Assembly (NCBI RefSeq): GCF_003334255.1
Contig: NZ_QOWU01000208.1
DNA from: Escherichia coli
Lineage (GTDB): Bacteria; Pseudomonadota; Gammaproteobacteria; Enterobacterales; Enterobacteriaceae
Direction: 5' to 3' (one strand)
DNA length: 617 nt
This document shows positions 1-617 of this stretch, in pieces. The notes below the pieces were generated by a model. It worked only from the letters and a program-made list of their open reading frames with translations. It was not told where the DNA came from and searched no databases. The position numbers and the translations under genes are program-made. Position 1 is the stretch's first letter, and each line of letters starts with the position of its first letter.

Positions 1-617
1 CCGAAATTTTTCGAAATTTCCGCGAATTTACTGCGATCCCTGACAAGCTCAACAGCCTTATCAACAGGCACCGCCAGCACGGTTTGATCATCAGGATGTG
101 CACTGCCGTATTCTGTTACAGGTTTATGCGCGGTGGAGCCATCGCTGTATGTGAGATCAAGGCCAATAAGTACGTACCCTTCCTGCTGCGCCGGTACGAT
201 ACTGCCAATCCTGGCCTCTTTTATCGTCTTTTTCCCGGTTGAATCGGGCATGCCAATACGCTGTTGCAGTTCCGGGCCAAACACCCCGGAAAGGACATCA
301 AGATTCTCCGGCGTATTAAGTGAAGCGATAGCCCTGTCCGGCTTGTCATCAAAGATTTTTTGCAGGTTGTTCACGGCCTGACCCGCTTTCGCTACATAGC
401 CATCATTCGCCATCAGCCTCAGCGGATTACCCTCTGACAACTGGCCGTAAAGACGCATTGCGGCATCCCGATCGCCAGCATCCACAGCCTTTCCAAGCGC
501 CGCCATCACAGGCTGATCGCGCGCCAGCATATCGTTATACTCAAGCCGTCGCTGGTTGTATTTCTGCATCCGGAGTCGCTGCTGCTCCATACCCAGCGAC
601 GCATTCCGGTAATTCTG
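1..617 (-). CDS. Internal fragment of a larger protein-coding gene (5' and 3' ends both outside the window); hypothetical protein of unknown function
   Basis: Reverse-complement frame with codons at + positions 617..615, 614..612, ... 5..3 is open for 205 codons with no stop; the other two minus frames hit stops within about 30 codons, and all three plus frames are interrupted (the longest, 133..381, is 82 codons). Chance of 205 stop-free codons in random ~53% GC sequence is roughly 5e-5. Translation (N->C): QNYRNASLGMEQQRLRMQKYNQRRLEYNDMLARDQPVMAALGKAVDAGDRDAAMRLYGQLSEGNPLRLMANDGYVAKAGQAVNNLQKIFDDKPDRAIASLNTPENLDVLSGVFGPELQQRIGMPDSTGKKTIKEARIGSIVPAQQEGYVLIGLDLTYSDGSTAHKPVTEYGSAHPDDQTVLAVPVDKAVELVRDRSKFAEISKNF. 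Amino-acid composition is protein-like and balanced (not low-complexity), with CTG-dominated Leu and GCG/GCC Ala codons. No start codon can be assigned: internal ATGs (e.g. codons 10, 17, 30) lack a well-spaced Shine-Dalgarno sequence and the frame stays open to the window edge. Confidence 0.85.
2..29. repeat. Three phased copies of CGAA(A)TTT in an AT-rich patch embedded in the coding sequence
   Basis: Direct reading: cgaaattt at 2-9, cgaaattt at 12-19, cgaattt at 23-29, i.e. spacing of 10 and 11 bp. The motif contains the self-complementary AAATTT core and the palindrome TTCGAA lies at 10-15. GC of positions 1-30 is about 33% against about 53% for the window. On the minus strand this stretch encodes ...RSKFAEISKNF. 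Confidence 0.3.

Follow-up and report, generated by a model that had tools for sequence, protein, structure and literature searches.

A PHROG-601 gene fragment from the late operon of Stx-converting podophages and the probable role of its product as an internal virion protein

The 617-nucleotide (nt) stretch of Escherichia coli DNA analysed here (contig NZ_QOWU01000208.1 of assembly GCF_003334255.1), referred to below as the window, is an internal piece of a single phage gene. The gene belongs to PHROG 601, a phage protein family annotated as of unknown function. It is found in the late operon of Shiga toxin (Stx)-converting podophages, immediately before the gene of a giant polyvalent protein, and its product in phage phi24B is an abundant component of purified virions. 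We consider it likely that this product is an internal virion (ejection) protein, a functional analogue of P22 gp20 and T7 gp15 that comes from an unrelated family. Short-tailed Stx phages spread Shiga toxin genes, and the crossing of the envelope by such phages is the context of this finding.

The open frame and its gene

Six-frame translation of the window revealed one minus-strand frame (frame 0) that is free of stops across 205 codons (plus-strand positions 3-617), and the remaining five frames contain 3 to 16 stops each. A full-length open frame in any of the six frames occurred in 22 of 20,000 mononucleotide shuffles of the window, and the analytic probability for a single frame is 5e-5. 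The ratio of nonsynonymous to synonymous substitution rates (dN/dS, Nei-Gojobori) calculated against five diverged orthologs, which differ by 5-15% of their nt, was 0.10-0.19. This indicates a real coding sequence under purifying selection. Against the near-identical PhiR5_2 sequence the value was 0.30, a figure resting on two differences. These data agree with a preliminary description of the window, made from its letters, which had reported a single stop-free frame of 205 codons spanning it on the minus strand.

The closest records are Escherichia phage PhiR5_2 (47416-48681) and a prophage of E. coli G1/2, both with 99.7% nt identity. Two nt differences, with one amino-acid change (E131D), separate the window from these best matches. 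The full gene is 1266 nt long in these records and the window covers codons 83-287 of its 421 codons; it is wholly intragenic and both gene ends lie outside, as had been proposed. The gene had also been described as large, but with 421 amino acids (aa) it is mid-sized, and the large one (about 2790 aa) is its downstream neighbour. Megablast detected the window sequence in 421 of 5426 complete E. coli genomes, nearly always on the chromosome, and in 186 phage records, nearly all of Stx-converting phages. Only four plasmid records matched, at 87%. The orthologs include H0149 of VT2-Sakai and phi24B gp48 (vb_24B_47; 47852-49114, 421 aa), which is 87% identical to the PhiR5_2 protein.

The 205-aa translation of the window matched PHROG 601 with E=9.4e-101, and the full ortholog did so over residues 1-421 with E=3.8e-203. 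At E≤0.01 the PHROG search returned only this family and family 15571. An exhaustive search among 1.84 billion cluster representatives yielded only 71 relatives at E≤1e-3, most of them 400-500 aa long, whose conserved portion corresponds to residues ~2-280. The close homologs are all annotated as E. coli 'hypothetical protein'. No Pfam match was obtained even at E≤10 for the family member of the window and 46 relatives, and NCBIfam, PADLOC, and sequence and profile searches of the PDB returned nothing for the PHROG-601 protein. The earlier statement that no family signature can be recognised is thus correct for Pfam, NCBIfam, PADLOC and the PDB (sequence and fold), but the gene is a member of PHROG 601 and not an orphan. 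The patterns reported as missing from the translation (Walker A, HExxH, YD-type) were indeed not found in it by a pattern scan, nor was Walker B, and the highest 19-residue Kyte-Doolittle mean of 0.85 agrees with the lack of a long hydrophobic segment. Rfam gave no match in the window at E≤1, and the window contains no repeats. Literature searches retrieved no functional study of the window gene, and the polyvalent-protein paper gives no description of the PHROG-601 neighbour.

The AlphaFold2 model of the full protein (mean predicted local distance difference test score 84) contains a helix over residues 4-128, and its distal part (aa 83-128) is encoded at positions 480-617 of the window on the minus strand. 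This predicted N-terminal helix is long and polar, Q/N/E/R/K/D residues accounting for 62% of it. A classical coiled coil was rejected, since no heptad periodicity was detected in the long helix of 11 family members (z-scores of -0.9 to 1.0 at periods 3.5-3.67). An ER/K single helix was rejected as well, the i/i+4 salt bridges being few. The composition of the helix probably explains the GenBank note attached to the phi24B ortholog, 'similar to putative transcription initiation factor and seryl tRNA synthetase'. This note and the label 'Transcription factor?' in a preprint on phi24B (see below) are the only annotations in favour of a transcription factor or other regulator. Since no DNA-binding or sigma/TFIIB-like domain can be recognised in the PHROG-601 protein, we regard a regulatory role as scarcely credible.

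The N-terminus bears a Gly-rich motif with the consensus GLAxGFLAGFNTxD, and residues G7 and G11 are nearly invariant in the family alignment. The strict motif was present in 28 of the 51 full-length family representatives and in 0 non-family open reading frames (ORFs) among 219 background ORFs, which indicates that it is family-specific. Downstream of the helix, positions 3-476 (minus strand) encode a conserved central alpha/beta domain (aa 130-287) that constitutes the family core and for which no structural relative was found in the PDB or BFVD. The most conserved block of the alignments, YVLIGLDLTYSDGSTAHKPVTEYGSAHPDDQTVLAVP (aa 230-266; plus-strand positions 66-176, encoded on the minus strand), follows the consensus LxVTYxDGSTAxKPVTxxRSxxxDDxVxxIP (aa ~230-266), and the models place beta-strands at 213-266, spanning the block. 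Its VTYxDGSTAxKPVT motif is nearly invariant across the family. The stretch VTYxDGSTxxxPVT is similar to the signature strand in a Rib-like domain of bacterial surface proteins (6s5w; hmmsearch E=0.06 over 19 residues), probably by chance.

The late operon and the giant-protein gene

The gene is set in the late virion operon of 933W/phi24B-like (Sepvirinae) Stx-converting podophages and prophages. In PhiR5_2 and G1/2, this operon runs through terminase, portal, major capsid protein (MCP), adaptors, lateral fibre, nozzle, needle, two small needle-tip genes and Lom. Four small genes (133, 218, 148 and 83 aa) come next, followed by the PHROG-601 gene and, 68 nt past it, by an 8.4-kb gene encoding a 2789-aa polyvalent protein with an LPD38 domain. 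The domains LPD5/LPD1/MuF_C/LPD38 were identified in the giant protein of phi24B and of a relative (locus L006), and a DarB-like segment was also detected in the giant protein (PHROG 10089, E=1.6e-29). A Panacea-domain gene and then IbrB/IbrA lie on the 3′ side of the giant gene.

The preliminary description had left the choice between phage, plasmid and defence locus to the flanking sequence. The flanking genes point to a phage late virion operon, and not to a plasmid or a defence locus. The accessory genes nearby (Lom, a hok/gef toxin gene, the Panacea-domain gene and IbrAB) could nevertheless speak for a moron, or for a defence or anti-defence effector, unrelated to virion function. We hold this to be highly improbable because no PADLOC family matched, the context is that of a phage late operon, and even in remote hosts such as Vibrio the gene remains beside the structural module, its product being abundant in virions.

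The association with the giant gene was followed in 80 viral contigs, retrieved with an 11-sequence family alignment as query and carrying relatives at 25-99% identity; 73 of these loci have downstream sequence. An ORF of at least 1900 aa begins at most 700 nt past the PHROG-601 stop codon in 50 of the 73 loci, and in 16 more the giant ORF, or its split pieces, is located within about 3.5 kb after 1-3 inserted genes. The giant ORF is thus found downstream in 66 of the 73 loci, down to 25% identity, and in 27 of the 33 loci at ≤41% identity. The remaining seven loci have insufficient downstream sequence, or shorter ORFs and fragments only. The gene order is conserved over long distances: in a Vibrio phage, nozzle-like and needle-like genes and then four small ones precede the gene of a 442-aa homolog, which is 31% identical over aa 149-274, and a 3130-aa giant comes after it. 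Two distant members (L006 and L007) likewise keep the order, and one of them then has a phosphoadenosine phosphosulfate (PAPS)-reductase gene, as in the Stx phages. The PHROG-601 gene thus has, almost without exception, the giant LPD38 polyvalent protein gene as its downstream partner.

The main rival to an ejection protein takes its force from this partnership. The PHROG-601 protein would be a loading or packaging chaperone for the ~2800-aa polyvalent protein, as P1 DarA/Hdf are for DarB; it would be an internal head protein needed to bring the giant into procapsids and co-packaged with it, and would have no role in a conduit. Throughout the family the gene is linked almost exclusively to the giant gene, the giant protein contains the DarB-like segment, and the authors of the JC1 study expect analogues of the Dar accessory proteins among unassigned virion proteins; the abundance of the PHROG-601 protein in virions also suits a chaperone. 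However, the protein has no sequence relation to any Dar accessory family, DarA and Hdf included, families 601 and 15571 being the only ones returned by the PHROG search. Furthermore, a natural chimera described below (P0144) pairs PHROG 601 with gp20 and gp16 ejection modules, with no giant protein nearby. On balance, we judge the chaperone unlikely.

Several other observations were made in this region. One to three extra genes (0.6-3.5 kb) are inserted between the PHROG-601 and giant genes at loci L063, L067, L069, L071, L072, L074-L077, L080 and L085, and the gap looks like a hotspot for moron insertion in several divergent lineages. A PAPS-reductase-like gene recurs, within the giant-protein cassette or adjacent to it, in E. 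coli Stx phages (IbrA), in a distant metagenomic relative and in Bcep22/JC1 (L001:21609-24035; L007:10851-11858; L091:7545-8273); in the Stx phages IbrA is accompanied by IbrB and the Panacea-domain gene. This recurrence suggests that the PAPS-reductase-like gene is functionally tied to the internal-protein module and is not a random moron. The G1/2 prophage (L002, NZ_CP060083.1 2553110-2577726) looks decayed: an IS1 interrupts the needle-tip gene, Lom is truncated, and both the 218-aa gene and the giant LPD38 gene are frameshifted. PhiR5_2 has intact versions of these genes. It also carries the hok/gef toxin gene, between Lom and the internal-protein cassette.

Glycine-zipper-like hydrophobic segments were noticed in three virion proteins of the cassette, and we count them among the arguments for an ejection role. 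They are located at the C-terminus of the 218-aa protein (LVGAGLGAVGAYA), at the C-terminus of the 83-aa protein (GIGTGAAMGAAVGGLPGAAIGAVIGGLAG), whose gene is directly upstream of the PHROG-601 gene (L001:11493-11744), and at the N-terminus of the PHROG-601 protein. The 83-aa protein also matches internal segments of PHROG families 16692 and 28412, whose members exceed 1000 aa, and so corresponds to a module embedded in large proteins of other phages.

Virion content, natural fusions and the proposed role

The presence of the protein in virions is documented by a study of phi24B combining cryo-electron microscopy (cryo-EM) and proteomics (2026 bioRxiv preprint, 10.64898/2026.04.10.717836). 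The supplementary proteome lists the 421-aa product under the label 'gp48 Transcription factor?', with 1634 peptide-spectrum matches (PSMs) overall and a gel-slice peak next to the MCP band. In the batch digest, 179 PSMs were assigned to gp48. The 724-aa portal received 101 in that digest, the nozzle 42, the lateral fibre 167 and the giant gp47 746 (10.64898/2026.04.10.717836). The PHROG-601 ortholog is an abundant component of purified virions. Copy numbers were estimated by normalising PSMs for length and scaling them to the portal, nozzle and lateral fibre, the copy numbers of which are known. This crude arithmetic gives about 30-37 copies of gp48 per virion, and ~19-23 of gp47, 22-27 of gp51 and 36-44 of gp50. 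For comparison, the molecules injected by P22 number about 12 of gp7, about 12 of gp16 and about 30 of gp20 (PMC8402733). The authors of the phi24B study propose gp47 as an encapsidated ejection protein, and their main cryo-EM text makes no mention of gp48 (10.64898/2026.04.10.717836).

Presence in virions, together with the long helical, polar and acidic character of the protein, would also be compatible with a head-assembly scaffolding or core protein that is partly retained in mature particles. This is very unlikely, since the canonical slot between portal and MCP is held by phi24B gp70 (342 aa), which is low in virions (35 batch PSMs), while gp48 is encoded about 12 kb downstream, past the tail genes, and exceeds the portal in abundance in mature virions. 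For each of the three readings as scaffold, transcription factor and defence gene, the present analysis includes a test that contradicts it.

An association with ejection modules is provided by the natural chimera P0144, a protein of 1386 aa encoded on three contigs including one complete chromosome. Its residues 5-356 correspond to PHROG 601 (E=3e-39), and residues 346-480 to PHROG 2534, the family of P22 gp20, annotated 'released from the phage upon host infection'; this part corresponds to the C-terminal module of gp20. Alignment of residues 343-470 with a profile of seven diverse gp20-type proteins gave an hhalign probability of 96.7% (E=3.6e-10). The C-terminal residues 745-1383 correspond to PHROG 770, the 'DNA transfer protein' P22 gp16 (E=3e-139). 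This layout indicates that the PHROG-601 helix and alpha/beta core replace the N-terminal ~260 residues of gp20 amid two known ejection proteins. For the C-terminal part of P0144, PHROG 770 and hhalign were used in place of Pfam. The Pfam profile search of residues 283-1386 was empty at E≤10, but a precomputed table lists PF26808 (Phage_P22_gp16). The discrepancy probably reflects a difference in library version, and it bears on the reliance to be placed on the lack of a Pfam hit.

P0144 is encoded outside any phage structural module (L008:10001-14161; GCA_051468635.1 CP195798.1 3825362-3849522), on an island with an integrase, AlpA, Bro-N and a Zn-ribbon/Toprim/DUF927 primase. No capsid or terminase gene was found within 10 kb on either side, and the matches of the neighbouring genes are limited to PHROGs of unknown function. 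The whole resembles a phage satellite carrying an ejection protein of its own. In a second, apparent fusion, P0132 (442 aa), a segment matching the N-terminal 42 aa of the small virion protein encoded upstream (83 aa; L001:11493-11741) at 55% identity (E=2e-13) is joined to the PHROG-601 N-terminus, the glycine-zipper tail of the 83-aa protein being largely deleted. Only this one representative shows the fusion, which a deletion or an error in gene calling could also explain.

Taken as an ejection protein, the PHROG-601 product would be packaged in the head at some tens of copies together with the DNA, and would exit with it through the tail after release of the needle. It may act as the middle ejection protein, forming part of a trans-envelope conduit, or may escort the giant protein through this conduit. 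Contact with a membrane or with a partner would be made by the Gly-rich N-terminal motif (GFAQGLLAGF), and the conserved alpha/beta core would be an assembly or interaction module. The polar helix, some 125 residues long (about 19 nm when entirely helical), would serve as a spacer.

Several points weigh against this proposal. The evidence from virions is the supplementary table of a single preprint, where the authors' label for the protein is 'Transcription factor?', and the copy number of gp48 is derived from crude PSM arithmetic. The fusion evidence comes from one chimeric protein cluster, which is not encoded in a phage structural module. A loading chaperone would account equally well for the tight linkage to the giant gene. 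The helix is not amphipathic, so that the formation of a tube cannot be argued from its sequence, and ejection, membrane association and oligomerisation of the protein are putative. Homology to P22 gp20 is absent: hhalign returned a probability of 0.7% for the family alignment against P22 gp20 and of 0.3% against an alignment of seven gp20 members. PDB searches gave no fold match to any solved ejection protein, T7 gp15 included. Because these profile and fold tests fail, the analogy with gp20 and T7 gp15 does not extend to membership in their families.

The natural gp48-gp20-gp16 chimera on the satellite-like island also raises a broader possibility of modular exchange. PHROG 601 would then be a new fold family of podovirus ejectosome components, piloting giant (2000-4600 aa) polyvalent effectors through the short tail and interchangeable with the N-terminal half of gp20, and the chimera on its island might retool the ejection machinery of a helper phage. 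This generalisation appears doubtful to us.

The component is uncharacterised and a structural orphan, and its assignment as an ejection protein is new relative to its annotation; the type of system is already known. The suggestion that the gene in the window could be part of a system not yet described is borne out only to a small extent, since the component is indeed uncharacterised but podovirus internal or ejection proteins encoded beside a giant polyvalent protein are of a known kind. The window reveals no new system; it is an ordinary piece of a gene from a phage structural module. Assigning gp48 to the ejection machinery, instead of 'Transcription factor?', gives gp47 a concrete and testable partner. 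If true, it would carry the gp14/15/16 paradigm over to the T=9 podophages of the GP4/933W/Bcep22 lineage.

Comparison with known ejection and head proteins

P22 gp20 (Sf6 gp12, HK620 gp20; PF16928, PHROG 2534) is the middle ejection protein of P22-like podophages. Its gene occupies the same slot as the PHROG-601 gene, preceded by the genes of the needle and the small ejection proteins and followed directly by that of the largest internal protein. The two proteins are of similar size (471/431 aa for the gp20 type, 421 aa for PHROG 601). Some tens of copies per virion are known for gp20 and estimated from PSMs for phi24B gp48, which is presumably in the capsid interior. In P0144, the N-terminal two-thirds of the PHROG-601 protein stands in for the N-terminal half of gp20. 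The downstream partners differ, a ~2800-aa polyvalent protein for the PHROG-601 gene and the 609-aa gp16 in P22. Membership of the P22 gp20 family was rejected at the sequence and profile level. PF16928 did not match the PHROG-601 protein, and P22 gp20 used as a query against the whole database retrieved nothing beyond near-identical Salmonella proteins. The N-terminal Gly motif has a loose likeness to gp20 proteins of the P22 clade only, the strict pattern being present in 0 of 7 gp20-type proteins.

T7 gp15 is the periplasmic tunnel protein of the T7 ejectosome. Like the PHROG-601 protein, it is largely helical and encoded by the middle gene of an internal-protein cassette, but it is longer (747 aa versus 421 aa). 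A further difference is that no core stack was reported for phi24B. The position of the PHROG-601 cassette matches those of P22 gp7-gp20-gp16 and T7 gp14-gp15-gp16, and its proteins of 218, 421 and 2789 aa run parallel in size to the gp14-like class (196-240 aa), the gp15-like class (431-982 aa) and the gp16-like class. Members of the gp15 class are usually recognised by size and synteny.

Bcep22 gp74 and JC1 gp68 of the Lessieviruses are encoded at the same position, directly upstream of a DarB-like giant of 4515-4602 aa. These proteins of 510-532 aa were detected in virions by mass spectrometry, and the portal, MCP and head-closure proteins of Bcep22/JC1 are homologous to their 933W counterparts. 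The N-terminal motif is common to both groups (GAFAQGLMQGM in the Bcep22 group, SGFAQGLLAGF in PHROG 601). Past the first ~25 residues no similarity was detected between Bcep22 gp74 and PHROG 601 (hhalign probability 3%), and full homology was rejected since the likeness is confined to this segment. Bcep22 gp74 also contains a long Pro/Ala/Thr-rich linker, from which the PHROG-601 family is free.

Finally, P1 DarA/Hdf are accessory proteins that load the giant DarB into P1 heads. Like them, the PHROG-601 protein in its proposed role would be a protein of the head interior whose gene is coupled to that of a giant, DarB-like protein with many domains that is injected. P1 is, however, a myovirus with a different head module, and the evidence from the chimera points to ejection modules rather than to head morphogenesis.
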